From contig CAMZAI010000001.1 in NCBI GenBank assembly GCA_947304065.1, positions 1 through 38,438 on the forward strand: DNA of 38,438 bases, written 5' to 3'. The DNA comes from an uncultured Clostridia bacterium. Lineage in GTDB: Bacteria > Bacillota > Clostridia > Lachnospirales > Lachnospiraceae. The translations under genes and the position numbers were made by a program. Positions 6,069-29,524 of the stretch are shown piece by piece. Every line of letters starts with the position of its first letter. Position 1 is the stretch's first letter. A model generated the notes under the pieces. That model saw only the letters and a program-made list of their open reading frames with translations, did no database searches and had not been told where the DNA came from.

Positions 6069-6179
6069 CCTTTGAAAGTTATTGGAAGCAATAAGCCATA
6101 CCCCTGAATCGCAGGGGCTAAAATAATGAGAACGAGCGGACGGATAGGCGTATCTGTTCGTACGCGGAAGGAGCGGAAA

Positions 6180-12709: not shown

Positions 12710-14183
12710 GATCAAGGGTCTCCCCTTAAGGATAAAGATGACCGGCATCTCGCTGGCCGTAAACATGCTGGTATTCATCATCAATATCGTTCTCCTGGTG
12801 GCCATGAACAGGATGTCGGACAGGATCGATACCGTATATAAGGCCAATCTGCAGCTGAACGAGATATCCGCGGCGATCAAGGACGTGCAGGACAGCATGA
12901 CCGAGTATCTGGACACAAAGACCAGCGACTCGCTCGAGGATTATTACCGCAGCGCGCAGAGTTTCGCGGAGATGACCGAGGTGCTCGGCGATGAGATAAC
13001 GGACAGCAGGCTCGGCAGGATGGAGCGTTCCGTGAAAAACATGTCGGCCGCGTATCTTGATGAGGTAGGCCAGACCGTAGACGCGAAACGAGGCAGGAAC
13101 GTAGAAAAGTACAGGACCCGCTACGAGGAGGCCACGCGACTGTACGGCTATATCAACAACTACATATACAGCCTGAACAACGAGCGATTCATGGACAATA
13201 CCGAGAGCTACAGGGAGATGCTCACGGCGTTCAGACGCTTCGAACTGTTCGGAAACCTGATCATGGGAGCGGTTATTTTCACGACCGCGCTGCTGATACT
13301 TAACCTTACGTCAAACCTTATGAGGCCTTTGAGGTCGCTCGCCGGCATGGCGGACGAGGTAGCGAAGGGAAACTTCGAGATCTCCACGGTGCCTGCGGAG
13401 TCGGACGATGAGATAGGCGTAGTGACCAGGGCTTTCAACAAAATGGTCGCCAGCGTTCAGGATTACATCGAGAAAATACGCCAGAGTGCGGAGAATGAGC
13501 GCATCCTTAAGGAAAAAGAGCTGATGATGGAGACACACCTGAAGGACGCGCAGCTCAAATACCTGCAGGCGCAGATCAACCCGCATTTCCTGTTCAATAC
13601 GCTGAACGCGGGCGCGCAGCTGGCCATGATGGAGGGCGCGGACCGCACCTACGAGTATGTGCAGGTCATGTCCGAGTTCTTCAGATATAATGTCAAAAAA
13701 GGCAGCAGGACCGTAACGATCGGTGAGGAGCTCGAGCTCGTCGACAACTATATCTACATCCTGAACGTGCGCTTTTCCGGCGATATCCACTACGAAAAGG
13801 ATATAGACGCCTCGCTGACGGATGTCGAGATGCCCAGCATGATCCTCCAGCCCATCGTCGAAAACTGCGTGAACCACGGTATACGCGAGATGCTCGGTGA
13901 AGGAAAGATAAAGATGAGCGTCTACGCGCTCGATGACACGGCCTGCATAAGGATAGAGGACAACGGAGCGGGCATGGATGAGGAGACCGTAGAACGCCTG
14001 AGGAACGGCCGTCCCGCATCGGATGAGAAAAAGGATTCGAACGGCATCGGAATGGATAATGTCTATGCCCGCCTGAAGCTTTTCGCGGGAACGGACGACT
14101 GCTTCTCGATAGAGAGCGACGGACCCGGCAAGGGCTCGAGGTTCACGATCTACCTCGATATAAAGGGTTCACGGTATCGTTGA
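12699..14183 (+). CDS. Sensor histidine kinase, YesM/LytS-type (HAMP + His_kinase + HATPase)
   Basis: Two TM segments and a HAMP domain (EIGVVTRAFNKM). Phospho-acceptor box QINPHFLFNTLN, N-box NCVNHG, G-box DNGAGM. ATG at 12699 after GAAGGGGG. Confidence 0.9.
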   Translation: MINKIKGLPLRIKMTGISLAVNMLVFIINIVLLVAMNRMSDRIDTVYKANLQLNEISAAIKDVQDSMTEYLDTKTSDSLEDYYRSAQSFAEMTEVLGDEITDSRLGRMERSVKNMSAAYLDEVGQTVDAKRGRNVEKYRTRYEEATRLYGYINNYIYSLNNERFMDNTESYREMLTAFRRFELFGNLIMGAVIFTTALLILNLTSNLMRPLRSLAGMADEVAKGNFEISTVPAESDDEIGVVTRAFNKMVASVQDYIEKIRQSAENERILKEKELMMETHLKDAQLKYLQAQINPHFLFNTLNAGAQLAMMEGADRTYEYVQVMSEFFRYNVKKGSRTVTIGEELELVDNYIYILNVRFSGDIHYEKDIDASLTDVEMPSMILQPIVENCVNHGIREMLGEGKIKMSVYALDDTACIRIEDNGAGMDEETVERLRNGRPASDEKKDSNGIGMDNVYARLKLFAGTDDCFSIESDGPGKGSRFTIYLDIKGSRYR

Positions 14184-14227
14184 CGCACACAAAAGGACCG
14201 GCGGATAGCGGCCGGACAGGAGAAACG

Positions 14228-15808
14228 ATGTACAAGATAATGCTTGCAGATGACGAAGGCATAGTCATCGATTCATTGAAGTTCATAATACAGAAAGAGT
14301 TCGGCGATGACTGTGAAGTGGAGTTCGCAAAGACCGGACGCAATGTCATAGAGCTCGCGGAGACCTTCCGGCCGGATATCGCGGTAATGGACATACAGAT
14401 GCCGGGCATCAACGGCATAGACGCTATGCGTGAGATACGCAAGACCAACGACAAGGTCGTGTTCATAGTCATGTCCGCCTACGATAAGTTCGATTACGCG
14501 AAGGAAGCGATGAAGCTCGGCGCGATCGAATATATCACTAAGCCCATGGAGCGCGGCAGGATCGTATCTGCCCTCAAAAAGGCGATGGTCATGGTCACTG
14601 AGGAGAAGAACCGGCGCTCGAACGACCTGATGATCAGGGAAAAGCTCGAGACCGTCATCCCGATACTTGAAAACGGCCTGATCTACAATATCCTGTTCCA
14701 TGAGTATTTCGACGAGGACATAGACAATTACAAGACCATGCTCGGTCTCCACGCGGAGAACGCCTATATGATGGTGCTGGTATCGGGTGACGCGAAAGAG
14801 GGCAACCATATGACCAACGCCCTCGGCTCGAGCGTTAAGCTGCAGCAGAACTACAGGGAGATACGTGAGTATATCAAGCTGTATTTCAGCGGCATCGTGG
14901 GCTCGGTAATGAGCAACAAGATCGCGGTACTGGTGCCCTGCGACTATGAGGAGATGGAGTACGGCGAGAGAGTCAGGGTCATTACGAACGCGCGCGAGAT
15001 GATACATAAGCTGAGCCATACCATGGACATCGCGTTCAGGGTAGGCATCGGAAAGGTCAACAGGCTGGCCAGACAGGACAATTCCTACAGGGACGCGATC
15101 AACGCGCTGCTGATGACGACCAACACGGTCGCGCATGCCGACGATCTGCCGATAGGCTGCGATTTCGAGGGAGAATACCCGATCGATCTCGAACTGAGGC
15201 TCTTTGAGGAGATCGCGAAGGGGCGCACCGAGGCTGCGCTCAGCGTTGCGAGGGATTTCTTCGACTGGATCAAGACCAAGGACATCATGGATATCCGTCT
15301 CAAGATCCTCGAGTTCGTCATGCGCGCCGAGACCATAGCATACGAAAAGGGACTTACCTATAAGATTGAGGACCGCCGCGATTATCTGCCGACGGTCATG
15401 CGCGCGAACGACGCGGAGAGCCTATGGGAGTGGTTCAAGGACAGGCTGATATTCTCGGGCACGAGCATTTCCGAGAAAAAGACCGAGACGACAAACGATG
15501 TCGTGGAGGCGTCAAAAGCCTATATCGAGGCCAATTACACAAAGAACATCACGCTCGACGACCTGTCGATGGCGGTAAACATCAGCTCGTATTATCTGAG
15601 CCGCATATTCAAGGAAAACACGGGCGAGAATTTCATCGATTACCTGACCAGACTGCGCATAGAGCACGCGAAGGAGCTGCTTTCAACCACTCAGTACTCG
15701 ATGAAGGAGATAGGCGTCATGTCCGGGTATTCGGACCCGAACTATTTCAGCAAGTCTTTCAAGAAAAACGTGGGTGTGACTCCCACGGAGTACAGGGAAG
15801 GCAAATGA
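14228..15808 (+). CDS. Response regulator with an AraC-type HTH output (YesN-like)
   Basis: Receiver domain (MLADDE, DIAVMDIQMPGINGID). C-terminal AraC HTH (YYLSRIFKENTGENFIDYL, GYSDPNYFSKSFKK). Confidence 0.92.
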   Translation: MYKIMLADDEGIVIDSLKFIIQKEFGDDCEVEFAKTGRNVIELAETFRPDIAVMDIQMPGINGIDAMREIRKTNDKVVFIVMSAYDKFDYAKEAMKLGAIEYITKPMERGRIVSALKKAMVMVTEEKNRRSNDLMIREKLETVIPILENGLIYNILFHEYFDEDIDNYKTMLGLHAENAYMMVLVSGDAKEGNHMTNALGSSVKLQQNYREIREYIKLYFSGIVGSVMSNKIAVLVPCDYEEMEYGERVRVITNAREMIHKLSHTMDIAFRVGIGKVNRLARQDNSYRDAINALLMTTNTVAHADDLPIGCDFEGEYPIDLELRLFEEIAKGRTEAALSVARDFFDWIKTKDIMDIRLKILEFVMRAETIAYEKGLTYKIEDRRDYLPTVMRANDAESLWEWFKDRLIFSGTSISEKKTETTNDVVEASKAYIEANYTKNITLDDLSMAVNISSYYLSRIFKENTGENFIDYLTRLRIEHAKELLSTTQYSMKEIGVMSGYSDPNYFSKSFKKNVGVTPTEYREGK

Positions 15809-15830
15809 CCGGATAACGGAGGGGGAACAA

Positions 15831-16880
15831 GTGAAAAGACCGACAGCATTGGCTCTGGCCGCGATCGTGATGATTAGTGTCATGCTCGCGGGCTGCAAGC
15901 CGGGGGAAAAGACCGTTGAGAAAAACGACGGGGCTGAGGACGACCGCATCGAGATCGCGATGAGCTTCGACTCGTTCGTCATCGAGCGCTGGCAGCGCGA
16001 CAGGGACGTTTTCGTTTCTACCGCAAAGGAGCTCGGAGCCACCGTTAATGTCCAGAACGCTAACGGCGACGTTGAGAAGCAAAAGGAACAGATAGAGTAT
16101 TTTATCAAAAAGGGCGTTGACGCCATCGTTATTGTCTGCATAGATTCCGACTCACTGAAGGAGACCGTTCAGAAGGCAAAGGATGAGGGGATCAAGATCA
16201 TAGCCTACGACAGGCTGGTAACCAACGCGAACGCGGATCTGTACATTACCTTCGATAACGAGATGGTCGGCACGATGATGGCCGAGGCTCTGGCAGCAAA
16301 CGGGGCTGAGGGCGGAAACGTGCTGATGCTGCAGGGCTCGCCGCATGATAACAACGTTCCGGCCGTGGAAAAGGGATTTAAGGCAGTCTGCGCCAATAAG
16401 GGAATGAGCATTGCCGACGCCATTTTCTGCGACGGCTGGAGGGCAGAGATCGCGGGGGAGTACATCTATGAGAACGAGGATATCGTAAAGAGCGTTGACG
16501 GCATAATGTGCGGAAACGACAACCTCGCGGGACAGGTTATCAGGGCTCTGTCGGAGAAGAGACTGGCGGGAGAGATACCTGTGGTCGGGCAGGACGCGGA
16601 CCTCGAGGCATGCCAGAGGATAGTCGAGGGCACCCAGGCGATGACCGTGTACAAGCCGGTCGAAAAGCTCGCGAAGCGTGCGGCTGAGTGCGCGATCGCG
16701 CTGGTAAAGGGCGAGAGCATATTCAGCGCCGATCTGTCCACGATAAACGACGGGACCTACGATATCAGGTATATAGGCCTGACGCCGATAGCGGTCACAA
16801 AGGAAAACCTTGATGAGGTCATCATAGGCAGCGGCTTCCATCTGAAAGAGGATGTTTATCTGAACGTGCCGGAGGACTAA
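15831..16880 (+). CDS. Sugar-binding lipoprotein, XylF-like periplasmic binding protein
   Basis: Lipobox LAGC. The type-I PBP pattern (GVDAIVIV, GIKIIAYDRL, VVGQDAD) resembles D-xylose-binding proteins. GTG start after GGAGGGGG. Confidence 0.87.
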   Translation: MKRPTALALAAIVMISVMLAGCKPGEKTVEKNDGAEDDRIEIAMSFDSFVIERWQRDRDVFVSTAKELGATVNVQNANGDVEKQKEQIEYFIKKGVDAIVIVCIDSDSLKETVQKAKDEGIKIIAYDRLVTNANADLYITFDNEMVGTMMAEALAANGAEGGNVLMLQGSPHDNNVPAVEKGFKAVCANKGMSIADAIFCDGWRAEIAGEYIYENEDIVKSVDGIMCGNDNLAGQVIRALSEKRLAGEIPVVGQDADLEACQRIVEGTQAMTVYKPVEKLAKRAAECAIALVKGESIFSADLSTINDGTYDIRYIGLTPIAVTKENLDEVIIGSGFHLKEDVYLNVPED

Positions 16881-16900
16881 TGGTAATTTTTTGCGTTTTA

Positions 16901-16943
16901 AAATGCAGTGCATGACAAAAAAGTGCACTGCATTTCTTTTTTT
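16901..16943 (+). terminator. Rho-independent terminator
   Basis: 12-bp stem AAATGCAGTGCA / TGCACTGCATTT followed by a T-run. Confidence 0.75.
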
Positions 16944-17051
16944 CAAAGGCAAGTGGGTAAAATAATCAAGATTCGTAAAAATTAATTCCTACCGGGGTAT
17001 GGTATGCTTTTTTTGCAACAATTATTCACCACTATTTCAGGAGGGCATTTT

Positions 17052-18116
17052 ATGAAAAAGATTGTAGTTTTATTACTTGTTCTGGTAATGGGACTTTCGA
17101 CTCTGACCGCATGCGGTAAGAAGTCGGGCGGAACCAAGGTCGGCGTTTCGATGCCTACCAAGGATCTGCAGAGATGGAATCAGGACGGCGACAACATGAA
17201 GAAGAAGCTTGAAGAAGCAGGTTACACCGTAGATCTTCAGTATGCTTCGAATCAGGTTGAGACTCAGGTTTCACAGATCGAGAACATGATCAGCTCGGGC
17301 TGCAAGGTTCTGGTTATCGCATCTATCGAAGGCGATTCACTCGGAACAGTTCTTGAGCAGGCAAAGGAAAAAGGCATCAAGGTTATCGCTTATGACCGCC
17401 TTATCCTGAACTCCGACGCAGTTACCTACTATGCTACATTTGATAACTACATGGTAGGAACCAAGCAGGGCGAGTACATTGAGTCACAGCTTAATCTGAA
17501 GAGCGGCGCAGGCCCCTTCAATATCGAGCTCATCACCGGTGACCCCGGCGACAACAACGCAAGATTCTTCTTCGGCGGCGCTATGGACGTTCTTCAGAAG
17601 TACATCGACAACGGACAGCTCGTTGTAAAGTCCGGCCAGAAGGATTTCGATACCGTTGCAACACAGAGCTGGTCGACAGAGAACGCACAGAACAGATTTG
17701 ACGCTATCATTTCCGCAAACTATGCAGACGGAACACAGCTTGATGCTGTTTTGGCTTCCAACGACTCAACCGCTATGGGCGTTACAAACTCACTTGAAGC
17801 CAACTATGCAGGAAACCACAGCAACTGGCCCATCATCACCGGTCAGGACTGCGATATCGCAAACGTTAAGAACATGATCGCAGGCAAGCAGGCAATGTCG
17901 ATCTTCAAGGATACCCGTGACCTCGCTGCAAAGACCGTAGAGATGGTTGACGCTATCATGCAGGGCAAGGAAGCTCCCGTTAACGATACCAAGACCTATA
18001 ACAATGGAGTGCTCGTTGTTCCTTCATACCTTTGCGAGCCTGTATTCGCAGATGTTAACAACTACAAGAAACTGCTTATCGACTCGGGCTATTACAAGGA
18101 GTCAGATCTTCAGTGA
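17052..18116 (+). CDS. chvE: Multiple-monosaccharide ABC transporter substrate-binding lipoprotein (ChvE-like)
   Basis: Lipobox LTACG. VGVSMPTKDLQRWNQDG and KVIAYDRLI are typical of ChvE-type binding proteins. ATG at 17052 after AGGAGGG. Confidence 0.88.
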   Translation: MKKIVVLLLVLVMGLSTLTACGKKSGGTKVGVSMPTKDLQRWNQDGDNMKKKLEEAGYTVDLQYASNQVETQVSQIENMISSGCKVLVIASIEGDSLGTVLEQAKEKGIKVIAYDRLILNSDAVTYYATFDNYMVGTKQGEYIESQLNLKSGAGPFNIELITGDPGDNNARFFFGGAMDVLQKYIDNGQLVVKSGQKDFDTVATQSWSTENAQNRFDAIISANYADGTQLDAVLASNDSTAMGVTNSLEANYAGNHSNWPIITGQDCDIANVKNMIAGKQAMSIFKDTRDLAAKTVEMVDAIMQGKEAPVNDTKTYNNGVLVVPSYLCEPVFADVNNYKKLLIDSGYYKESDLQ

Positions 18117-18137
18117 TCAATAAATAACACGGAAGGG

Positions 18138-18159
18138 CAGGCGGGCTTTGTCCCGCCTG
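18138..18159 (+). terminator. Intra-operon hairpin between the binding-protein and ATPase genes (partial terminator or stabiliser)
   Basis: Stem CAGGCGGG / CCCGCCTG with a 6-nt loop. Only a short T-tract follows. Confidence 0.4.
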
Positions 18160-18199
18160 TTAATTCTGAACAGATATGAAAAGAAAGGGAGGATTGAAA

Positions 18200-19726
18200 T
18201 TGGCTAAGATATTGCTTGAAATGAGAGACATAACCAAGACCTTCCCCGGTGTTAAAGCGCTCAGCAACGTTAATCTTAAGGTGGAAGAAGGCGAGATCCA
18301 CGCCCTGGTCGGCGAGAACGGCGCCGGAAAATCCACACTGATGAATGTCTTAAGCGGAATATATCCGTACGGTACTTATGAGGGAGACATCGTCTACGAC
18401 GGTGAGGTTTGTAAGTTTAACAAGATCAAGGACAGTGAAGCAAAGGGAATAGTTATCATTCACCAGGAGCTGGCACTGGTTCCTTATATGACGATCGGCG
18501 AGAACATGTTTCTCGGCAATGAACGCGGAAGCAAATTCCGCATTAACTGGAACGAAACGAATGAGCTTGCGGCGAAATACCTGAAAATGGTCGGCTTGAA
18601 TGAGTCTCCGCAGGTTCTGATTAAAGATATAGGTGTCGGTAAACAGCAGCTTGTAGAGATCGCGAAGGCCATGGCCAAAAACGCGCGTCTCCTTATCCTT
18701 GACGAGCCCACCGCGTCGCTTAACGAGGAGGACTCCAGGGCACTTTTGGACCTTCTGCTCAAGTTCAAGCAGAACGGACTTACTTCTATCATCATTTCAC
18801 ACAAGCTGAACGAGGTTTCTTATGTTGCGGACAAGATCACGGTCATCCGTGACGGCTGCACGATCGAGACGCTGGACAAGAATGTCGACGATTTCTCCGA
18901 GGCACGCATCATCAAAGGCATGGTAGGACGAGAGATCGCGGATCGTTTCCCTAAGCGTGAGAAACACATCGGAGACATCAAGCTTGAGGTAAGGAACTGG
19001 ACCGCTTATCATCCTCTCTATTCCGGACGCAAGGTTGTCGACAATGTCAACTTCAACGTGCGCAGGGGCGAGATCGTGGGCATATCCGGACTCATGGGCG
19101 CGGGACGTACGGAGCTCGCGATGAGTCTTTTCGGAAAGAGCTACGGCGACAATATTTCCGGACAGGTATTCATTGACGGCAAGGAAGTTCACATGAATAC
19201 CGTTAAGGAAGCGATCGCTCATAAGCTGGCTTACGTTACCGAGGACAGAAAGGGCAACGGACTTATCCTTTCCAATACGATTAAGCTCAACACGACACTG
19301 GCTAATCTGGAAGAAGTAAGCTCACACAGTGTCATCGACAAGGACAGGGAATTCGCGGCTGCGGACGACTACAGGAAAAAGCTTTCGATCAAATGTCCTT
19401 CGGTTGAACAGAACGTAGGCAATCTTTCGGGCGGAAACATGCAGAAGGTGCTTCTCGCCAAATGGATGTTCGCAACGCCGGATATCCTGATACTCGACGA
19501 ACCCACGAGAGGTATAGATGTCGGCGCCAAGTATGAGATCTACTGCATTATGAACCAGCTGGTGGCAGAAGGAAAATCGGTCATCATGATCTCTTCAGAG
19601 ATGCCCGAGATACTCGGCATGTGTGACAGGATATACATAATGAACGAAGGCAGAATGGTAGGTGAACTTGATGCTTCCGAAGCTTCTCAGGAAGCCATCA
19701 TGTCGCATATCATCAAAGCCGGTTAA
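18200..19726 (+). CDS. gguA: Sugar ABC transporter ATP-binding protein with duplicated NBDs (GguA/MglA/XylG type)
   Basis: Walker [14 protein letters not shown] signatures in both halves, and [10 protein letters not shown] typical of GguA. The TTG at 18200 follows AAGGGAGG by 7 nt. The ATG at 18176 has no RBS. Confidence 0.9.
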
Positions 19727-19742
19727 TTAGTGAGGTTGAAAA

Positions 19743-20930
19743 ATGACAAATACTAAACTGCTTGAATTTACAAAAAAATATACGATGATCATCGTACTTG
19801 TCCTGGTATTCGGACTGTTTGCCATTTTGACCGGAGGAAGCATCCTGCTCCCCGCAAACATTTCAAATATCATCTCACAGAACGCGTACGTATTCATCCT
19901 CGCGACGGGCATGCTGCTCTGTATCCTGACAGGCGGAAACATCGATCTTTCGGTAGGTTCTGTAGTATGCTTCGTAGGCGCTGTCGGAGCGAAGCTGATG
20001 GTAGAGCTTAAAGTCCCGATGATCCTTACGGTACTCATCATGCTGGTCGTAGGTACTGCGATCGGCGCATTCCAGGCCTTCTGGATCGCTTATGTAAGAA
20101 TTCCTCCGTTCATTGTTACCCTGGCAGGCATGCTTGCATTCAGAGGCTTGAGCAACGTAGTCTTAAACGGTCTTACCATTTCGGTCAAGGAATGTACTTC
20201 CTTCGTTAATCTGTTCGGAGGCGGTGCAAACTGCTACATTCCGGATGTCTTTAATTTCGGCGGGATCAACGGATTATGTCTTATCGTAGGCATTGTCTTT
20301 GCGGCACTGTATGTTGTGCTGGAGCTTAAAAAGAGACTTACGAAGATCAAAAAGGATTATGAAGTCGAGTCTGCGGTTTCATTCTGGGTCAAGACAGTAC
20401 TCATTGCGGCGGTTATTTTTGCATTCGCGTTCAGACTGGCTCAGCACAAAGGAATTCCGACGGTACTCATCTGGGTATTCCTGGTGATCCTGATCTACGG
20501 ATATATTACCTCTAACACTACAGTGGGACGTTCGTTCTATGCGGTCGGCGGTAATGAGAAGGCTACCAAGCTTTCCGGTATCAATACCAATAAGGTTTAT
20601 TTCCTCGCATATACCAACATGGGCCTTCTTGCGGCACTTGCGGGAATGGTTACCATCGCGCGTCTGACTTCGGCTCAGCCGACTTACGGACAGAACTACG
20701 AGATGGACGCGATCGGTTCCTGCTTTATCGGCGGCGCTTCGGCTTACGGCGGAATCGGTACCGTTCCCGGCGTTATCGTTGGTGCGGTCCTCATGGGCGT
20801 TATCAATATGGGTATGTCCCTGATGGGCGTTGATGCGAATATGCAGAAAGTTGTAAAGGGTATGGTTCTTCTCGCGGCCGTTATCTTCGATGTAGTATCG
20901 AAGCGCGGCAAGTGGTTTGCAAAGGGCTGA
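19743..20930 (+). CDS. gguB: Sugar ABC transporter permease (GguB/XylH type)
   Basis: 395-aa polytopic protein with the ribose/xylose-family permease pattern (GGNIDLSVGS, TSAQPTYG). Confidence 0.9.
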   Translation: MTNTKLLEFTKKYTMIIVLVLVFGLFAILTGGSILLPANISNIISQNAYVFILATGMLLCILTGGNIDLSVGSVVCFVGAVGAKLMVELKVPMILTVLIMLVVGTAIGAFQAFWIAYVRIPPFIVTLAGMLAFRGLSNVVLNGLTISVKECTSFVNLFGGGANCYIPDVFNFGGINGLCLIVGIVFAALYVVLELKKRLTKIKKDYEVESAVSFWVKTVLIAAVIFAFAFRLAQHKGIPTVLIWVFLVILIYGYITSNTTVGRSFYAVGGNEKATKLSGINTNKVYFLAYTNMGLLAALAGMVTIARLTSAQPTYGQNYEMDAIGSCFIGGASAYGGIGTVPGVIVGAVLMGVINMGMSLMGVDANMQKVVKGMVLLAAVIFDVVSKRGKWFAKG

Positions 20931-20956
20931 TTACTGTTTCTTCATAATTTTACGGG

Positions 20957-20990
20957 GGACCGGGTAAAACCGGTCCTTCGTATTTTTTTT
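20957..20990 (+). terminator. Rho-independent terminator
   Basis: Stem GGACCGG / CCGGTCC with loop GTAAAA. A T8 run ends at 20990. Confidence 0.75.
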
Positions 20991-21084: not shown

Positions 21085-24000
21085 ATGAATAAGTGGAAGA
21101 CATGGCATATCGTTCTGTTTGTAGCAATGTGCGTAAGCTTAAATGTTGGCGGCAGACTTTTGGCGGTCAAATGGGAGCTTCCGCTCTGGGCAGATTCATT
21201 TGGGACTGCTCTTTGCGCGTATATCGCGGGTCCTGTATGCGGCGCCGTGGTCGGACTGACCGGCAATCTGGCGTACAGCGTGGTCAATAACTTTTCTGCT
21301 GCGTATTCCGTAACCAGCATCGCATTGGGCATAATTGTGGGCATGGCCGCGAAGCACAGATGGTTCGATCAGTTCTACGGCTTCATGAAGGCTGCTTCCC
21401 TCGCAGTGCTTACCGCGCTGATCGTATCGGTGCCCGTGAATATCATCCTTAACGAGGGCCTTACCGGCAATAAATGGGGCAACGGCGTCATTGCCTATCT
21501 CCTCGGAAAGAGATGGCCGGACCTGATCTGCTCAATACTTGGCCAGCTGGCCATCGAGTTCCCCGATAAGGTGCTCACGATCGCCGCTGTTTATATAGTA
21601 ATTCTTATCAGGCGAATCCACCGCAGCCGCAGTGCAGAAGAAACCTTAAAGCACGATGCGGAGGTAGCTTCGCTTGCGCTTCTTTGTGTTCTTATAGGCT
21701 TTTCTTCGCCGGTGAGTGCGAGTGCGGCAGCTTCAGCCGAAACAACCGACTATAACGATTATGTCCAGAGCGTCTACAGCAGCAATAACGGACTTCCCTG
21801 CGGTGAAGCCAACGATATCGCGCAGACGAACGACGGCGTGCTCTGGATCGGTACATACGCGGGACTTTACCGCTATAACGGACGTGAGTTTCGCTGGGTA
21901 GACAACTACGAATCCGTTAAGAATGTCAACTGCCTTTACGTGGATCAGGAGGGACGTCTCTGGATCGGTACGAACGATAACGGTCTGGCGATCGCTATCC
22001 GCGAGAAGGTTGTAAATGTGCTCGATCAGTCGAGCGGACTTCCTTCCAATTCGGTCAGATGCATTATCCGTGCCGAGGACGGCTATTATTATGTCGGAAC
22101 CACGGGCGCGATGCAGATACTCGAGATGAATAACGGTCTGAAGGCCGTGAAAACGCTGGATGATGTCAATTACGCGGACAGCATTACCGCGGACCGCCGG
22201 GGCTATGTGGCGGCGATCGCTTCCGACGGCAGGATGTTTCTGTTGAAAGGCGGACAGATACTTACTTCACTGCAGCTGCCCGACGGGCAGGATATCTTCA
22301 ACTGCTGCGCGTTCGCACCCGGAGGCACGCTGATGGTCGGCACTTCGACCAATCATATCTACTGCTACGATGTTTCGGGAGATGAATTTAAGCAGATCAG
22401 CGTCACAACATGTGAGGATGTTGCAAGCATCAACAATCTGAACTATCTGGATGATGGAACACTGTTCATATCCACCGACAGCGGCATATCCTACATTGAT
22501 ACGACCGGCTACCATAAGCTGAATACAAACGATTTCAATAACTCGATCGACAACATGCTCTATGACTACCAGGGCAATCTCTGGTTCACTTCCTCCAGAC
22601 TCGGACTGCTGCGCCTTGCAAAGTCCCCTTTCAAGGATGTGTACGGTTCTGTGGGAATGGAGAGAAGAGTTGTCAATGCGATCGTTTTCTGGGAAGGCGA
22701 CTATTACATCGGCACCGACAAGGGACTCGACGTAGTGGATAAGGCCTGCAGGAACGAAATAGAGAACGATCTGACAAAGGAACTGGAAGGCAAGCGTATC
22801 CGCTGCATGTACGTGGACGGACGCAATCATCTCTGGGTCTGCACCTACGGAAGCGGTCTGATGGAGTATGCACCGAACGGCGAGTCATGGTCCTACAACG
22901 CCGAGAACGGAAGCTTCGGAAGCCGCGCGAGACTGGTTACCGGACTTTCGGACGGAACTATTCTGGCAGCAGGCGATACGGGCATCAGCTTCATAAAGGA
23001 TCATAAGATAGAGCGCACCATCAGCAACGGGGACGGACTGATCAATTCGATGATCCTGACGGCTACCGAAATGAGCGACGGAACTATCCTTGCAGGCACG
23101 GACGGCGACGGTATCGCAGTCATTAAAGACGGCGCGGTAACCAGAATGCTGACGCGCGACGACGGCCTAAGCAGCGGAGTTATCCTGCGTACGGTAAAGG
23201 ACACGAAGTCCGAGGGCGTGTTCGTTGTTACAAGCAACAGCCTGTGCTATCTCGGACCGACCGGTCTGATCACGGTACTCGATAAGTTCCCTTATTTCAA
23301 CAACTATGACATCTGGGTAAAGGATGAAGATACGCTCTTTGTTATGTCCAGCGCCGGAATCTATGTCGTGGAGCGCGACGAGCTCGTGTCGGGCGGCGAT
23401 ATGGTCTGGGAGCTTCTGGACGCGAGAAGAGGTCTGGGTACATCCCTTACGGCGAATTCCTGGAACTATTACAACGGCAAAGGCGAGCTGTTCCTTCCCT
23501 GCGATACCGGCGTATACAAGATCGACGTGGATAAGTATAACAGCGATGTGCGTTCTTACCGCATGCAGCTGGCATCGGTACGTCTGGAAGATGTTCTGCA
23601 GCCTCCCGTAAGAGCGGGAGCAATCACGGTCGGGCAGGGTGTTACCCGTATCGAGCTGAGCCCCGAGATACTGAATTATACGATCCAGGAGCCCAATGTC
23701 GGTTACCGTCTTGACGGTTTTGACAGGGAGGGGTATTGGACGATAGTGCCCCAGAGCAGCCTGGGCAATATCAATTATCCAAATCTTCGCGCAGGAAAAT
23801 ATACCTTCCGCCTTGCGATCTTTGACAGTGCGGGAGAGAAGGTGCTTGAGGAGCGTACCTTTGAGATAGTAAAAGAGGGCGAGTTCTATGAGAAGCCCGG
23901 GTTCACCACATATATGCTGCTGGTTCTTTCAGCCTTCATCGTATGGGTCACATGGATGACGGTGCAGAGGCAGCTCAACAAGCAGCAGATCAAGCTGAAT

Positions 24001-24744
24001 ATGGCCAATGAAACAGTCATGGCCATAGCGAACGCAGTCGATGCCAAGGATGTGCGTACACATCAGCATTCGCAGCGTGTTGCCGAGTATTCGGAGATGA
24101 TCGCGCAGGAGATGAACTGCTTCAAATGGTGGGAGCGCAGAAAAGCTCTTTCCAACCTTAAAAAGGCTGCGCAGATGCACGATATCGGTAAGATCGGTAT
24201 CCCCGACAGCGTACTGAACAAGGTCGGGCGACTGACCGACGAAGAATACGCGAAGATGAAGTCGCATGTAATACGCGGTGCCGAGATCCTGAAGGATTTC
24301 ACGCTCGTTGAGCATGTTGAGGACGGAACGAAATACCATCATGAGCGCTATGACGGACGCGGATATCCCGAAGGCCTCGCAGGCGAGCAGATCCCGCTGT
24401 TCGCAAGGATCATCGGGGTGGCGGACGCATTCGATGCGATGACTTCAAACCGTGTTTACCGCAACCACATGGACACCGATTATGTAATGAATGAAATGAA
24501 GCGCGGAAGGGGAACACAGTTCGATCCCGATGCACTGGACGCGTTCCTTCGTCTGGTCGACAAAAATGTGATAAATCTGGAAGAACTCTACGCGCAGAAG
24601 CGTGCCGAGATACAGGCGGCGGAAGACGAAGAGGCGCAGGAAGAACTCCGGAGACGTGTGGAAGAGGATAAGAAGATACAGGCTTCCGAGATGCAAAGCG
24701 GCGGAAAGAGCGATCCTACCGACGAGAAAGGAGAGAAGGCATGA
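21085..24744 (+). CDS. Multidomain HD-GYP protein: N-terminal polytopic membrane module + Reg_prop beta-propeller repeats + Y_Y_Y domain + TM + HD-GYP c-di-GMP phosphodiesterase domain
   Basis: Repeats such as NDGVLWIGTYAGLYRYNG and DQEGRLWIGTNDNGL. Y_Y_Y-like YRLDGFDREGYW..AGKYTFRL. HD-GYP motifs MHDIGK and HHERYDGRGYP. About 185 N-terminal residues form roughly 5-6 hydrophobic helices. Confidence 0.9.
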   Translation: MNKWKTWHIVLFVAMCVSLNVGGRLLAVKWELPLWADSFGTALCAYIAGPVCGAVVGLTGNLAYSVVNNFSAAYSVTSIALGIIVGMAAKHRWFDQFYGFMKAASLAVLTALIVSVPVNIILNEGLTGNKWGNGVIAYLLGKRWPDLICSILGQLAIEFPDKVLTIAAVYIVILIRRIHRSRSAEETLKHDAEVASLALLCVLIGFSSPVSASAAASAETTDYNDYVQSVYSSNNGLPCGEANDIAQTNDGVLWIGTYAGLYRYNGREFRWVDNYESVKNVNCLYVDQEGRLWIGTNDNGLAIAIREKVVNVLDQSSGLPSNSVRCIIRAEDGYYYVGTTGAMQILEMNNGLKAVKTLDDVNYADSITADRRGYVAAIASDGRMFLLKGGQILTSLQLPDGQDIFNCCAFAPGGTLMVGTSTNHIYCYDVSGDEFKQISVTTCEDVASINNLNYLDDGTLFISTDSGISYIDTTGYHKLNTNDFNNSIDNMLYDYQGNLWFTSSRLGLLRLAKSPFKDVYGSVGMERRVVNAIVFWEGDYYIGTDKGLDVVDKACRNEIENDLTKELEGKRIRCMYVDGRNHLWVCTYGSGLMEYAPNGESWSYNAENGSFGSRARLVTGLSDGTILAAGDTGISFIKDHKIERTISNGDGLINSMILTATEMSDGTILAGTDGDGIAVIKDGAVTRMLTRDDGLSSGVILRTVKDTKSEGVFVVTSNSLCYLGPTGLITVLDKFPYFNNYDIWVKDEDTLFVMSSAGIYVVERDELVSGGDMVWELLDARRGLGTSLTANSWNYYNGKGELFLPCDTGVYKIDVDKYNSDVRSYRMQLASVRLEDVLQPPVRAGAITVGQGVTRIELSPEILNYTIQEPNVGYRLDGFDREGYWTIVPQSSLGNINYPNLRAGKYTFRLAIFDSAGEKVLEERTFEIVKEGEFYEKPGFTTYMLLVLSAFIVWVTWMTVQRQLNKQQIKLNMANETVMAIANAVDAKDVRTHQHSQRVAEYSEMIAQEMNCFKWWERRKALSNLKKAAQMHDIGKIGIPDSVLNKVGRLTDEEYAKMKSHVIRGAEILKDFTLVEHVEDGTKYHHERYDGRGYPEGLAGEQIPLFARIIGVADAFDAMTSNRVYRNHMDTDYVMNEMKRGRGTQFDPDALDAFLRLVDKNVINLEELYAQKRAEIQAAEDEEAQEELRRRVEEDKKIQASEMQSGGKSDPTDEKGEKA

Positions 24745-25934
24745 AGCGTGTATACATCACGGTTGTGCTGACCTGTCTGGTCATGCTGGCAGCCTTCGTA
24801 GGACTTTTCAGAGTCCTTAACCTTTCGGGCGGACGAGATCATCTGACGATCGGATTTATCTACGATAATGACGAAAGTACTCCGTATACCTACAATTTCT
24901 CGCTCGCGAAGGACGCGGTTGAGAAGAAATACGGAAAACAGGTTGATATACTGACGCGAAGCAATGTTCTGGACAATGAAATGGAGGAGCCGCTCCGCGA
25001 ACTCGCGAACGCAGGCTGTGACATCATCTTCTTCAACGGCTACAGTGAAACGGTGATCAAGATGGCGCCGGAGTATCCGGACATTGAGTTCTGCCAGACT
25101 TCGTACATGGATATGAGCGGGCAGACGGTTCCGGAGAATTATCACACCTTTAAGGGTGAGGCATATCAGGGAAGATATGTGAGCGGAATAGCCGCGGGCA
25201 TGAAGATCAGGCAGATGATCGGCGAAGGCGTCATTACGGATGATCAGGCACTGGTGGGTTTTGTGGCCGCCTTCCCGACTTCCGAAGTAATATCGGGCTA
25301 TACAGCCTTTATCCTTGGTGTCCGTTCCGTTGTGCCCAAGGCAGTGATGAGAGTCAGATATACCCAGACCTGGAGCAGTTACGCAGAGGAAAAGAGCGCG
25401 GCAGAGAAGCTGATATCCGAGGGCTGCGTGATCATTTCGCAGCATACCGATACCATCGGTCCCGCTATTGCATGTGAGGAAACATCCGGTAAAAGGAAGG
25501 TTTACTTCGTTGGCTATAACCAGAGTATGTCAGAGGTTGCACCCGGTACATCACTTGTGACTTCGAGAGTTTGCTGGGAGCCTTATGTAGTCGCTGCAGT
25601 GGATGCCCTTATGATCAATAAGGAGATCGAAGAGGTCGTATCCGGAAAGAAACACGGAAACGACGTATCTGCGGGCTTTGAAAGAGGCTGGGTAGAGATG
25701 ATCGACCTGAACGTTCCGGTTGCGGCACCCGGCACGATGGGAGCCATCAATAACGCGATAGAGCAGTTTAAGCGCAGCGGCGGAGACTTCGTGTTCAGAG
25801 GTAATTATATCGGTGTAGATCCCGACAATCCTACAAATACGATCGATCTGACATACGGATATTCGGAGAACGCGAATACATCATATCCTTTGTTCGGATA
25901 CATTCTTACGGATATAATAACGGTAGAAGAGTAA
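24741..25934 (+). CDS. BMP-family (PnrA/Med-like) substrate-binding protein with an N-terminal membrane anchor
   Basis: A TM anchor, then the BMP-like pattern (IGFIYD.., GYNQS). Its ATG overlaps the preceding stop (ATGA). No ABC permease or ATPase is adjacent. Confidence 0.82.
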   Translation: MKRVYITVVLTCLVMLAAFVGLFRVLNLSGGRDHLTIGFIYDNDESTPYTYNFSLAKDAVEKKYGKQVDILTRSNVLDNEMEEPLRELANAGCDIIFFNGYSETVIKMAPEYPDIEFCQTSYMDMSGQTVPENYHTFKGEAYQGRYVSGIAAGMKIRQMIGEGVITDDQALVGFVAAFPTSEVISGYTAFILGVRSVVPKAVMRVRYTQTWSSYAEEKSAAEKLISEGCVIISQHTDTIGPAIACEETSGKRKVYFVGYNQSMSEVAPGTSLVTSRVCWEPYVVAAVDALMINKEIEEVVSGKKHGNDVSAGFERGWVEMIDLNVPVAAPGTMGAINNAIEQFKRSGGDFVFRGNYIGVDPDNPTNTIDLTYGYSENANTSYPLFGYILTDIITVEE

Positions 25935-25951
25935 AAAGAAATACGCATGAT

Positions 25952-25980
25952 AAAGGCCATGGGACGATCCCATGGCCTTT
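25952..25980. terminator. Bidirectional hairpin terminator between the BMP gene and the convergent dtxR-family gene
   Basis: 13-bp stem AAAGGCCATGGGA / TCCCATGGCCTTT with a 3-nt loop. Confidence 0.7.
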
Positions 25981-25986
25981 AGTTTC

Positions 25987-26367
25987 TTACTTATTTTTCG
26001 TTCCGTACTTTTTCATGTGAGCCTTGATCGCATCGAAGGTTTTGTCGCTGATATAGTGCTCGATGCGGCAGGCGTCCTCAGCGGCAGTCTCTTCGTCCAC
26101 GCCGAGATTCATGAAGAGGGTGGAGAGCACCGTGTGACGTTCGTAAATACGTTTCGCGAGTATCTCGCCCGCAGTGGTCAGTTTAAGGTAACCGTCGTTA
26201 TCCTTTTTTACCAGGCCTTCATCCTTTAAAAGCCCGAGAGCACGGCTGACAGACGGCTTTGAATAGCCGAGATAGTCGCCGACGTCTATCGCGCGGACAG
26301 CGCTCGAATTCTGTGAAAGCACATATATGGCCTCAATATACATTTCTCCCGATTCCTGCAACGCCAT
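25987..26367 (-). CDS. DtxR/MntR-family metal-dependent transcriptional repressor (short form, no SH3-like domain)
   Basis: The HTH KPSVSRAL and metal-site motif ACRIEH match DtxR-type site-2 residues (Cys, Glu, His). ATG at 26367 follows GGGAGGAGG. Confidence 0.9.
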   Translation of the reverse strand: MALQESGEMYIEAIYVLSQNSSAVRAIDVGDYLGYSKPSVSRALGLLKDEGLVKKDNDGYLKLTTAGEILAKRIYERHTVLSTLFMNLGVDEETAAEDACRIEHYISDKTFDAIKAHMKKYGTKNK

Positions 26368-26478
26368 ATCAGGGGACCTCCTCCCATATTTCCTTATTAG
26401 AAACAGTTTACCACATTGCGCCGCATCGTTCAATCGGATTGCCTAAGAAGTGATTCTAAAAAAAATATAAAATAATGC

Positions 26479-26813: not shown

Positions 26814-27035
26814 GTGAAGACACTGAGAGACGCGAAGATCGGCGAAACGGTCAAGGTAGTTAAGCTTCATGGTGAAGGCGCTGTAAAACGCAGGATCATG
26901 GACATGGGAATCACAAAACATACGGAGATCTATATCCGGAAGGTTGCACCCCTGGGCGACCCCATCGAAGTAACCGTGAGAAATTATGAGCTTTCGCTTC
27001 GTAAAGCGGACGCAGAGATGGTGGAGGTAGAATAA
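26814..27035 (+). CDS. feoA: FeoA family protein (second copy)
   Basis: LRDAKIGETVKVVKLHGEGAVKRRIMDMGI is a typical FeoA sequence. GTG start after AGGAGG. Confidence 0.9.
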   Translation: MKTLRDAKIGETVKVVKLHGEGAVKRRIMDMGITKHTEIYIRKVAPLGDPIEVTVRNYELSLRKADAEMVEVE

Positions 27036-29524
27036 TGAGCATACGTATTGCACTTGCGGGTAACCCCAACAGCGGTAAAACAACCCTGTTCAACGCACTT
27101 ACCGGATCCAACCAGTTCGTCGGAAACTGGCCCGGAGTAACTGTAGAGAAGAAGGAAGGTAAACTGAAGAAGCACGATGATGTGATCGTCACCGACCTCC
27201 CCGGAATATATTCCCTTTCTCCCTATACCCTGGAGGAAGTGGTTGCCAGAAATTATCTGATCGGAGAGCGTCCCGACGCGATCCTGAACATCGTGGACGG
27301 TACAAACCTTGAGAGAAACCTGTACCTTACCACACAGCTTACCGAGCTTGGAATTCCTGTGGTCGTAGCCGTTAACATGATGGATATCGTAAAGAAGAAC
27401 GGCGACCAGATCAATCTTGTGGAGCTGTCACGCCAGCTCGGATGCAAGGTAATGGATATCTCGGCACTCAAGGGCGACGGTATCGACGCCGCAGCGGAAG
27501 AGGCAATCAAGGCTGCAAAGAACGGAAAGACCGTTCCGCTCCATACCTTCTCCGGCCCCGTAGAGCACGCCATTGCGCATATTGAGGAAGCAGTTGTTCA
27601 CGATATGCCCGAGGAGCAGCAGAGATGGTACGCTATCAAGATCTTTGAGCGCGACGATAAGGTTCTTGCCCAGCTGAACATCCCTGCGGACAAGATGTCC
27701 CATATTGAAAATGACATTCAGGCGGCCGAAAAGGAACTCGACGATGATTCCGAGAGCATTATCACCAACGACCGTTATGTATATATCGCGGAAGTTATCA
27801 AGGCCTGCTACAAAAAGAAGAACGCGGGCGCGCTGTCGACTTCCGATAAGATCGATAAGATCGTTACAAACAGATGGCTCGGCCTTCCCATTTTCGCGGC
27901 GGTTATGTTCCTCGTATACTGGATCGCGATGGTAGGCGTGGGCGCATCCGCTACGGACTGGGCAAACGACGGCCTCTTCGGTGACGGCTGGCACCTGTTC
28001 GGCATCGGCGGAAAAGCAGCCGGTGAGGCAGCTGAGGAGTACGGCGCTGCAATGAGCGCTATCGGCGGCTATCTCGACGTTGACGTTGAAGACGAAGAAT
28101 TCGATGCAGATGCAGCGATAGAAGAACTGAAGGGCATTACCGGACCTGCGACCTCCACTGTAGAGGTTGAGGACGAGGAGACCCTCGCTGTCAGCGAAAT
28201 GACCGTATATTACGAAAACGTGCCCGAGGACGCCGATGAGGAAGAAGTTATCGGAATGTCCTTTAAGGACGCCGTTGCATATGTTGAAGAAAACGGTTTT
28301 GAAGAGCCCGATCCCGCGGATTACGGAGTATGGGTACCCGGCGTGCCTGTTCTTATCGAGAGTCTTCTCGACAAGATCGGAACCGCAGACTGGCTCAAGA
28401 GCCTTATACTTGACGGTATCGTAGCCGGCGTAGGCGCGGTACTCGGCTTTGTTCCCCAGATGCTCGTACTGTTCCTGATGCTTGCATTCCTTGAGGCGTG
28501 CGGATACATGGCACGTATCGCATTCGTGCTCGACCGTATCTTCAGAAGATTCGGTCTTTCGGGCAAGTCCTTCATTCCCATGCTGGTCGGCACCGGCTGC
28601 GGTATCCCCGGCATCATGGCATCACGTACCATCGAGAATGAGCGTGACCGCCGTATGACGATCATGACCACGACATTTATCCCCTGCGGCGCTAAGGTTC
28701 CCTTCATCGCGATGATCGCAGGCGCGATCTTCGGCGGAAGCGCATGGATCTCGACCGGCGCTTACTTCATCGGTATGGCTGCGATCATTATTTCCGGCGT
28801 AATGCTGAAGAAGACGAGGATTTTCGCAGGCGATCCCGCTCCGTTCGTTATGGAGCTTCCCGCTTACCATATGCCGACACTCGGCAATGTACTCCGCTCC
28901 ATGTGGGAGCGCGGCTGGTCCTTCATCAAGAAGGCAGGCACGATCATCCTTATCTCGCAGATCGTTGTATGGTTCCTTTCGGGCTTCGGCTTCGCGGAGG
29001 ACGGCTTCAGGATGCTTGAGGAGGATGAGATCTCGATCTCGATCCTTGCAAAGGTCGGAAATGCCATCGCATGGCTGTTCACTCCTCTCGGATGGGGCAA
29101 CTGGCAGGCAGCGGTCGCATCGTTTACAGGTCTCGTAGCTAAGGAGAACATCGTAGGTACGATGGGCGTTCTCTACGGAGGCGGAGAAGAGGGCCTCTAT
29201 GCTACACTCGCAGGCGTATTCACCGGAGTTACCGGTATGTCGTTCCTGGTATTCAATCTTCTGTGCGCACCCTGCTTCGCGGCTATCGGCGCGATCAAGC
29301 GTGAGATGAACAACGCAAAGTGGACATGGTTCGCGATCGGCTATCAGTGCGGTTTTGCTTATATCGTTGCGCTGATGATCAACCAGTTCGGCGGACTCTT
29401 CACAGGAAATGTAAGTGTGATCGGCCTGATCTTTGCCATTGCGTTCCTTGCGGCAATCATTTACATGCTGTTCTTCAAGAAGTACAGCGAAGCTACAAAG
29501 TTTACAAAGGCAGTTAAAGTTTGA
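27035..29524 (+). CDS. feoB: Ferrous iron transporter FeoB with a long acidic insertion
   Basis: N-terminal G domain GNPNSGKTTLFN, DLPG and NMMD. Membrane gate motifs GVGAVLGFVPQ and EACGYMARIAF. The start overlaps the feoA stop (TAATG). Confidence 0.95.
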   Translation: MSIRIALAGNPNSGKTTLFNALTGSNQFVGNWPGVTVEKKEGKLKKHDDVIVTDLPGIYSLSPYTLEEVVARNYLIGERPDAILNIVDGTNLERNLYLTTQLTELGIPVVVAVNMMDIVKKNGDQINLVELSRQLGCKVMDISALKGDGIDAAAEEAIKAAKNGKTVPLHTFSGPVEHAIAHIEEAVVHDMPEEQQRWYAIKIFERDDKVLAQLNIPADKMSHIENDIQAAEKELDDDSESIITNDRYVYIAEVIKACYKKKNAGALSTSDKIDKIVTNRWLGLPIFAAVMFLVYWIAMVGVGASATDWANDGLFGDGWHLFGIGGKAAGEAAEEYGAAMSAIGGYLDVDVEDEEFDADAAIEELKGITGPATSTVEVEDEETLAVSEMTVYYENVPEDADEEEVIGMSFKDAVAYVEENGFEEPDPADYGVWVPGVPVLIESLLDKIGTADWLKSLILDGIVAGVGAVLGFVPQMLVLFLMLAFLEACGYMARIAFVLDRIFRRFGLSGKSFIPMLVGTGCGIPGIMASRTIENERDRRMTIMTTTFIPCGAKVPFIAMIAGAIFGGSAWISTGAYFIGMAAIIISGVMLKKTRIFAGDPAPFVMELPAYHMPTLGNVLRSMWERGWSFIKKAGTIILISQIVVWFLSGFGFAEDGFRMLEEDEISISILAKVGNAIAWLFTPLGWGNWQAAVASFTGLVAKENIVGTMGVLYGGGEEGLYATLAGVFTGVTGMSFLVFNLLCAPCFAAIGAIKREMNNAKWTWFAIGYQCGFAYIVALMINQFGGLFTGNVSVIGLIFAIAFLAAIIYMLFFKKYSEATKFTKAVKV

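Follow-up and report, generated by a model that had tools for sequence, protein, structure and literature searches.

A BMP-family binding protein encoded in overlap with a transmembrane HD-GYP sensor: a candidate co-sensor in cyclic di-GMP signalling

What is the role of a BMP/PnrA-family binding protein whose gene begins within the stop codon of the gene for a transmembrane (TM) sensor with an HD-GYP domain? The question is raised by a 38,438-nucleotide stretch of DNA (the window, analysed here over its full length) from an uncultured Clostridia bacterium of the family Lachnospiraceae (assembly GCA_947304065.1, contig CAMZAI010000001.1, positions 1 to 38,438 of the forward strand). The answer that we favour, with moderate confidence, is that the two proteins constitute a two-subunit surface receptor, in which the BMP protein is a dedicated ligand-binding co-sensor of the HD-GYP enzyme, a predicted cyclic di-GMP (c-di-GMP) phosphodiesterase. 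This reading draws on the obligate pairing of the two genes, their conserved coupling, the unrelated flanks of the pair, the exchange of output domains, the loss of the lipobox, the conservation of the ligand pocket and the terminators that bracket the pair. The key elements of the locus are the following.

21085..24744, + strand: HD-GYP sensor gene, 1219 aa (ECF-S-like membrane domain, TM helix, extracellular propeller/Y_Y_Y region, TM helix, cytoplasmic HD-GYP domain, acidic tail)
24741..25934, + strand: BMP/PnrA-family binding protein gene, 397 aa
24741..24744, + strand: ATGA start/stop overlap of the sensor and BMP genes, kept in 69/79 orthologous loci
24727..24735, + strand: Shine-Dalgarno element AAAGGAGAG of the BMP gene, within the 3' end of the sensor gene
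20951..20982, + strand: intrinsic-terminator-like hairpin, 13-bp stem followed by T8, closing the ChvE/GguAB operon
25951..25981, + strand: intrinsic-terminator-like hairpin, 14-bp stem, closing the two-gene unit

The gene pair and its conservation

The two open reading frames (ORFs), 21085..24744 and 24741..25934, share the tetranucleotide ATGA, and the BMP gene thus starts inside the stop codon of the HD-GYP gene, as had been proposed in an initial annotation of this DNA. The same annotation correctly placed a ribosome-binding site of the BMP gene within the upstream coding sequence (the GGAG core of the Shine-Dalgarno element lies at 24730-24733, 7 nt ahead of the ATG) and identified the next feature as a terminator, namely, the hairpin at 25951-25981. 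On the other side, the terminator at 20951-20982 insulates the pair from the upstream sugar ATP-binding cassette (ABC) operon. A chance overlap can be ruled out because 69 of the 79 orthologous loci share a spacing of -4 nt between the two genes, the others having -1 (2 loci), 0 (1), +3 (6) or +73 (1); the ATGA overlap is conserved, implying translational coupling of the sensor and BMP genes. The junctions in distant relatives are likewise an overlap or a gap of at most 9 nt, with equivalent GGAG or GGAGG elements. In two rumen metatranscriptomes, contigs for the sensor and contigs for the BMP protein are present at similar depth.

The initial annotation had named conservation of the adjacency between the BMP gene and the propeller-HD-GYP gene as the first check of a functional pair, and this adjacency proved to be nearly invariant: a signalling gene lies directly upstream of the BMP gene in 204 of 204 informative loci, and in 202 of these it encodes the same sensor. 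Loci were considered informative when they had usable upstream sequence (among the 202 same-sensor loci, a few genes are cut by contig ends), and comprise 79 orthologous, 7 diverse, 77 broad genome and 41 metagenome loci, with identities of 41-82%, from Lachnospiraceae, Ruminococcus and Treponema. The orthologous set consists of 80 genome loci with BMP proteins of 72-80% identity, from rumen Lachnospiraceae and Butyrivibrio, plus one locus from a contig lookup (L081); in 79 of these 81 loci, the BMP gene is immediately preceded, on the same strand, by the gene for a full-length sensor orthologue (71-82% identity), and contig ends cut the other two. The seven diverse relatives (41-57% identity), one of them from a Treponema metagenome-assembled genome (MAG), all have a gene for a 1174-1230-aa Reg_prop/Y_Y_Y/HD_5 protein immediately upstream (7/7), and the surroundings of these seven pairs are unrelated to each other.

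A profile-based scan of species-representative genomes detected at least 572 relatives of the BMP protein, in Roseburia, Agathobacter, Eubacterium, Butyrivibrio, Jutongia, Wujia, Ruminococcus, Ruminiclostridium and several Treponema or Spirochaetales MAGs. Of the 79 loci newly fetched for this broad set, 63 have the full sensor gene upstream and 12 a sensor gene cut by the contig end, 2 lack upstream sequence, and 2 have a different gene, so that the sensor is upstream in 75 of the 77 informative broad loci and another signalling gene in 2 of the 77. In metagenomes, the gene for the ECF-S-like/propeller/HD-GYP protein is upstream in all 41 usable loci out of 45. Clustering of the flanking ORFs over 211 loci revealed no conserved third gene; the most frequent cluster of flanking genes codes for a generic ABC ATPase and is present in 34 of the 211 loci, on mixed sides and strands. 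Locus scans with P0128 and P0155 yielded 1 and 0 genome loci, respectively, and alignment A2 is too divergent for such a scan.

The sensor and its exchangeable output domains

The sensor gene encodes, in order from the N-terminus:

21085..21618, + strand: N-terminal multi-TM domain (aa 1-178), resembling the S component of energy-coupling factor (ECF) transporters, CD3073 family
21664..21720, + strand: TM helix (aa 194-212), which follows a positively charged loop and takes the chain outside the cell
21721..23907, + strand: extracellular region (aa 213-941) of about 730 aa, with Reg_prop beta-propeller repeats and Y_Y_Y
23701-23871, + strand: Y_Y_Y domain (aa 873-929)
23908..23964, + strand: second signalling TM helix (aa 942-960)
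24028..24531, + strand: HD-GYP (HD_5) domain (aa 982-1149), a predicted c-di-GMP phosphodiesterase

The HD-GYP domain matches HD_5 with an E-value of 3.8e-38 and retains the intact motifs MHDIGK and HHERYDGRGYP, which recur in seven distant partners, three of which have another residue in place of the Pro of GYP; by domain and motif criteria, it is a predicted c-di-GMP phosphodiesterase. The acidic tail behind this domain is variable. In the extracellular region, the Pfam scores are 75.8 bits for Reg_prop and 29.1 bits for Y_Y_Y (cutoff 26.6), and the Reg_prop repeats followed by Y_Y_Y are located between the two TM helices (aa 194-212 and 942-960), the arrangement that defines the type of the hybrid two-component systems (HTCS). 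The Bacteroides HTCS share this extracytoplasmic combination of propeller and Y_Y_Y, but have neither the ECF-S-like domain nor the HD-GYP output nor the BMP partner, all of which are present in the pair. HTCS bind glycans directly and are not known to need a substrate-binding protein (SBP).

According to the predicted topology, the HD-GYP domain is inside the cell, and the propellers and the ectodomain of the BMP protein, with its type II anchor, are both outside. The two partners are joined in one chain in P0124, a 955-aa protein known from one metagenomic representative, which was not used as Rosetta-stone evidence: its HD-GYP domain runs straight into the BMP domain (from ...QFDPHIIDI directly into IYEGDEITPY...), with the tail and the TM anchor absent and no TM segment in between. 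Because such a fusion would put the BMP domain in the cytoplasm, P0124 probably reflects an in-frame deletion or a faulty assembly.

The two loci in which the upstream gene differs are the most informative with regard to which part of the sensor the BMP protein accompanies. In one of these (L127), REC and Hpt domains make up the C-terminal end encoded by the gene that overlaps the start of the BMP gene. A closely related locus on a longer contig (L214), with a BMP protein 89% identical to that of L127, contains the full upstream gene: its product, of 1510 aa, has the ECF-S-like domain and the propellers and continues with HisKA, HATPase and REC domains, and its ECF-S-like/propeller input is 40-44% identical to that of the HD-GYP sensors. 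In the other exception (L154, positions 3-2137 of a 2.7 kb contig from a Spirochaetaceae MAG), the BMP gene overlaps, through ATGA, the end of a gene with a class III adenylate/guanylate cyclase domain, the N-terminal part of which is lost at the contig end. The sensors of L127, L154 and L214 have outputs other than HD-GYP, that of L214 keeping the ECF-S-like/propeller input, and therefore the BMP protein travels with the sensory input module. Just upstream of the L214 hybrid kinase, a 477-aa REC-HD_5 response regulator is encoded, and this locus thus appears to be a two-component form of the same pathway that still ends in an HD-GYP enzyme; L214 also shares the hybrid kinase output with the HTCS. 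The complete gene order in L214 (2025-10261) is REC-HD_5 regulator, 1510-aa hybrid kinase, BMP protein and a 352-aa membrane GHKL (HATPase_c_5) protein.

These variants raise a broader possibility, which we put forward only tentatively: that the BMP protein and the ECF-S-like/propeller region together are a widespread, portable input for sensing extracellular purines, connected to at least three outputs (HD-GYP, hybrid kinase acting on REC-HD-GYP, and class III cyclase) in gut and rumen Bacillota and in Treponema, and, in its boldest form, that the ECF-S-like domain receives the ligand from the BMP protein.

The ECF-S-like domain is common to all partners, the hybrid kinase of L214 included. 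Residues 1-178 of the sensor match NCBIfam NF045596 over 2-166 of its 174 profile positions (E 9e-17), the match to Pfam ECF_trnsprt is weak (E 0.035), and the hydropathy profile contains five clear hydrophobic helices and one weak one. Family-wide alignment of the domain reveals the motifs P[LV]W.DS.GT, GP, TGN.WG and DF.DK. As a fused N-terminal part of a signalling protein, the domain found no counterpart among the sensor-domain descriptions in the HD-GYP census discussed below. A BMP protein that hands its ligand to the ECF-S-like domain, the occupancy of which would set the output, with the propeller sensing something else, for example, a glycan, would account for the conservation of this domain in all partners; furthermore, BMP proteins (RfuA, 4iil) and ECF S components both include binders of small aromatic heterocycles. 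We nevertheless regard this mechanism as very unlikely: the S-component match, at 61 bits, falls short of the NCBIfam cutoff of 180, neither EcfT nor EcfA was seen among the genes next to the pair, and we know of no SBP-dependent ECF S component. If true, the hand-over of a ligand to the ECF-S-like domain would make this the first binding-protein-dependent S-component 'transceptor'.

The BMP protein: membrane anchor, transport relatives and ligand pocket

The BMP protein matches the Pfam family Bmp (PF02608) with an E-value of 1.4e-25 and 90.3 bits (cutoff 24.1), and matched no NCBIfam equivalog. It consists of two parts:

24750-24806, + strand: signal-anchor TM helix (aa 4-22), from hydropathy
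aa ~32-397: extracellular type I periplasmic binding protein (PBP) fold

The N-terminus is MKR followed by VYITVVLTCLVMLAAFVGL, forming one hydrophobic anchor. The initial annotation had assigned a membrane anchor rather than a lipobox to this protein, and the single N-terminal helix, with a Thr before Cys12, bears this out. A lipoprotein reading of the conserved 'LTC' was rejected given the Thr at -1, the continuation of the helix for 11 residues past the Cys and the lack of conservation of Cys12 in the wider clade, in which 80 of 102 sequences have Ala, Ser or Val in its place. By contrast, the next-nearest relatives of the BMP protein (at most 44% identity) have classic lipoboxes of the LVACGG type followed by linkers, and one of these lipobox-bearing relatives (L089) is encoded together with a double ABC ATPase and two BPD_transp_2 permeases, the canonical BMP operon. 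With the closest lipobox-bearing relative thus part of a transport operon, the paired clade looks like a derived offshoot of a family of transport SBPs, one in which lipidation and the transporter were lost and a link to the sensor was gained. Some more distant BMP domains (37-40% identity; P0142, P0144, P0154, P0174, P0205 and P0168) are fused to dockerin, fn3, BspA-type leucine-rich repeat, Peripla_BP_6 or SBP_bac_5 domains, and these proteins are apparently cellulosome- or surface-displayed.

The main question in this regard is whether the BMP protein of the pair still serves a transporter. The initial annotation had stated that no ABC permease or ATPase is nearby, and this holds insofar as no cognate BMP transporter was detected, but not for ABC genes in general: a complete CUT2 sugar ABC transporter, also on the upstream side, ends 155 nt before the sensor gene.

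17004-18116: ChvE-type SBP
18176-19726: double ABC ATPase
19743-20930: GguB permease, BPD_transp_2

BPD_transp_2 is the permease family that is also used by BMP importers. This ChvE/GguAB transporter (17004-20930) was considered as a partner of the BMP protein and rejected: it has its own SBP, is behind a terminator and is found with the pair in a single one of 81 related loci. An orphan transport SBP that delivers purines or nucleosides to a distant BMP-type importer and is co-transcribed with the sensor for co-regulation, or a protein that serves both a transporter and the sensor, as ChvE and MBP do, is a more serious contender. The protein is a bona fide member of the BMP family with a conserved transport-type pocket, and TM-anchored SBPs exist in Gram-positive bacteria. 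Moreover, many signalling SBPs also feed transporters (PMC8050422). However, among the neighbouring genes in about 200 loci, a BMP-type permease or ATPase adjoining the pair was not found, the clade lost the lipobox that the transporter-linked relatives keep, and the invariant partner is a sensor gene with a start/stop overlap. Taken together, these observations make a transport function unlikely, and the co-sensor reading remains the preferred one.

The AlphaFold2 model of the BMP protein (pLDDT 78) has its best Foldseek matches in AtzT (6pi5/6pi6) and in the Brucella protein 3s99, with E-values of 1e-18 to 1e-19 and target-normalised TM-scores of 0.80-0.84, followed by BmpD, Lbp, Med, RfuA (4iil) and PnrA; of these, BmpD, Lbp and PnrA bind nucleosides and RfuA binds riboflavin. 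AtzT and 3s99 are also the nearest proteins in a sequence search of the PDB. In AtzT, guanine is contacted by Tyr45, Glu165, Asn169, Trp194, Asn218 and Asn220 (PMC6834077). These contacts align to Y49, E182, G186, W211, H235 and D237 of the BMP protein, a putative purine pocket; in the adenine-bound 3s99 the corresponding residues are W, E, G, W, H and D, five of which are identical to the BMP residues, the first being aromatic in both proteins. The pocket residues of the BMP protein thus match, in the alignment, those of the purine-base binders 3s99 and AtzT, and our best guess is that the ligand would be an adenine-type purine base. Among 181 non-identical sequences of the paired clade with 41-80% identity, the six putative pocket positions are 96-100% conserved and under strong purifying selection; ligand binding is therefore argued to be maintained.

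Compared to the transport BMPs, the paired BMP proteins have an 11-residue insertion (aa ~154-170) and a diverged C-terminal portion of about 100 aa. Two conserved clade-specific motifs were detected outside the pocket, GPAxACEE (aa 240-246), which is as conserved as the pocket, and a C-terminal S.P.F.Y.L motif. Both could represent an interface, and, together with the pairing and translational coupling, which fit a stoichiometric subunit, they are compatible with a ligand-independent role, in which the BMP protein would be a scaffold or chaperone for the folding, dimerisation or stability of the large ectodomain. The conservation of the pocket at 96-100% is hard to explain without ligand binding, and we consider a purely structural role quite unlikely.

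A proposed mechanism, its precedents and the surrounding genes

In the mechanism that we propose, the sensor and BMP genes would form one bicistronic, translationally coupled unit. The large subunit would be a one-component TM sensor, with the double propeller and Y_Y_Y outside and the HD-GYP domain inside the cell, and the small BMP subunit, devoid of a lipoprotein signal and of an ABC transporter, would be tethered by its N-terminal helix. The BMP ectodomain would capture a small planar ligand, most probably an adenine-type purine base, close in the manner of Venus-flytrap proteins and, in either the liganded or the unliganded state, dock on the extracellular part of the sensor, with aa 213-941 as the presumed docking surface. 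The signal transmitted through the TM helix would then alter the HD-GYP activity and hence the cellular level of c-di-GMP, which typically controls motility, adhesion and exopolysaccharide.

Several points weigh against this mechanism. Adjacency proves functional linkage rather than mechanism, and three elements are what we infer, namely, the physical contact between the BMP protein and the sensor, the ligand, and the sign of the change in phosphodiesterase activity. No RNA contig spanning the gene junction was found in the two rumen metatranscriptomes. The absence of a transporter concerns the adjacent genes, and the BMP protein may have a dual role in transport and sensing. The ligand was assigned by aligning the BMP protein with two proteins of solved crystal structure to which it is about 23% identical, an alignment that is ambiguous in the segment equivalent to Ser97/Phe98, and the divergent representatives of 50% clusters, P0122-P0130, differ at some pocket positions.

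The initial annotation drew analogies to LuxP-LuxQ, ChvE-VirA and XylFII-LytS, and these are apt; NspS-MbaA and ScrB-ScrC are closer precedents that involve c-di-GMP (PMC8050422). XylFII-LytS, LuxP-LuxQ, TorT-TorS and ChvE-VirA resemble the pair in having a ligand-binding subunit with the type I PBP fold encoded beside the gene for a membrane sensor. These SBP-dependent kinases, however, signal by phosphotransfer, whereas the main output of the pair would be direct hydrolysis of a second messenger, and only the rare L214-type variant employs a hybrid kinase. NspS-MbaA of Vibrio cholerae and ScrB-ScrC of V. parahaemolyticus are SBP-controlled GGDEF-EAL enzymes (PMC8050422, PMC8967002). As in the pair, a transporter-free SBP homologue is encoded beside a TM c-di-GMP enzyme and is thought to dock on it outside. 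The differences involve nearly every component: the SBPs are SBP_bac_8 and SBP_bac_3 proteins rather than Bmp and are soluble, whereas the BMP protein of the pair has its own TM anchor; the output is GGDEF-EAL rather than HD-GYP; the receptor part is dCache-like rather than ECF-S-like plus propeller/Y_Y_Y; and the hosts are Proteobacteria rather than gut Bacillota or Treponema. The pair would therefore be new among the SBP-dependent c-di-GMP enzymes with respect to the SBP family, the enzyme class, the input architecture and the host range.

The transport BMPs, such as PnrA of T. pallidum, BmpD and BmpA of B. burgdorferi, the Brucella protein 3s99 and AtzT, share the Bmp domain and the type I PBP fold with the BMP protein of the pair, which differs from them in lacking a lipobox and an ABC operon and in having its gene fixed to a sensor gene. 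A regulatory member of the family is Med of Bacillus subtilis, a regulator of comK rather than a transport protein; the structure of its B. halodurans homologue (2hqb) ranks 11th among the Foldseek matches of the BMP model, with 17% identity in the alignment. Med is a distantly related lipoprotein with, to our knowledge, no dedicated sensor partner, whereas the BMP protein of the pair is TM-anchored and its gene is fixed to that of a sensor.

In the published record, neither BMP proteins nor HD-GYP enzymes figure in a 2021 review of signalling through SBPs (PMC8050422). A census of HD-GYP proteins names no association with propeller, Y_Y_Y, Bmp or ECF domains and states that none of the HD-GYP phosphodiesterases characterised has an extracytoplasmic sensor (bioRxiv 10.1101/2021.11.05.467447). 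A search of the literature on BMP/PF02608, propeller/Y_Y_Y or Butyrivibrio in combination with HD-GYP or c-di-GMP found no description of the pair.

The module is common in the dominant fibre degraders and butyrate producers of the gut and rumen (Butyrivibrio, Roseburia, Agathobacter, Eubacterium and Ruminococcus) as well as in Treponema. In these ecosystems, decisions on motility and attachment may depend through it on purines outside the cell or on similar heterocycles from plants or microbes. The BMP ectodomain offers a tractable entry into this system, being a small soluble domain, the ligand of which could reveal what the large, opaque sensor detects. For genome annotation, the implication is that hundreds of proteins that bear the name 'BMP family ABC transporter substrate-binding protein' probably do not belong to a transporter.

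The remaining genes of interest in the window include, upstream of the pair, those for further sugar sensing and uptake proteins:

11660-12709: TorT/XylFII-like binding protein, overlapping the LytS-type kinase gene
12675-14183: LytS-type histidine kinase
14180-15808: AraC/YesN-type response regulator
15831-16880: XylF-like SBP

The XylFII/LytS/YesN-like system (11660-15808) is a textbook binding-protein-dependent kinase within the same window, and the region 11660-20930 as a whole is a complete sugar-sensing and uptake cluster beside the pair. Downstream of the pair are genes for a DtxR/MntR-type repressor (25987-26433, - strand) and FeoB (27035-29524, + strand), and Fur and ZnuA adjoin two distant pairs (L084 and L085). 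A link to metal homeostasis was considered on this account and dismissed as coincidence, such genes being present in 4/68, 0/47 and 0/22 long loci. Unrelated to the pair are the genes for a DUF5692 membrane protein (1262-2374, - strand), an aldo-keto reductase fused to a 4Fe-4S dicluster domain (4857-6068, + strand) and a patatin-like phospholipase with DUF6363 (6126-7028, + strand).

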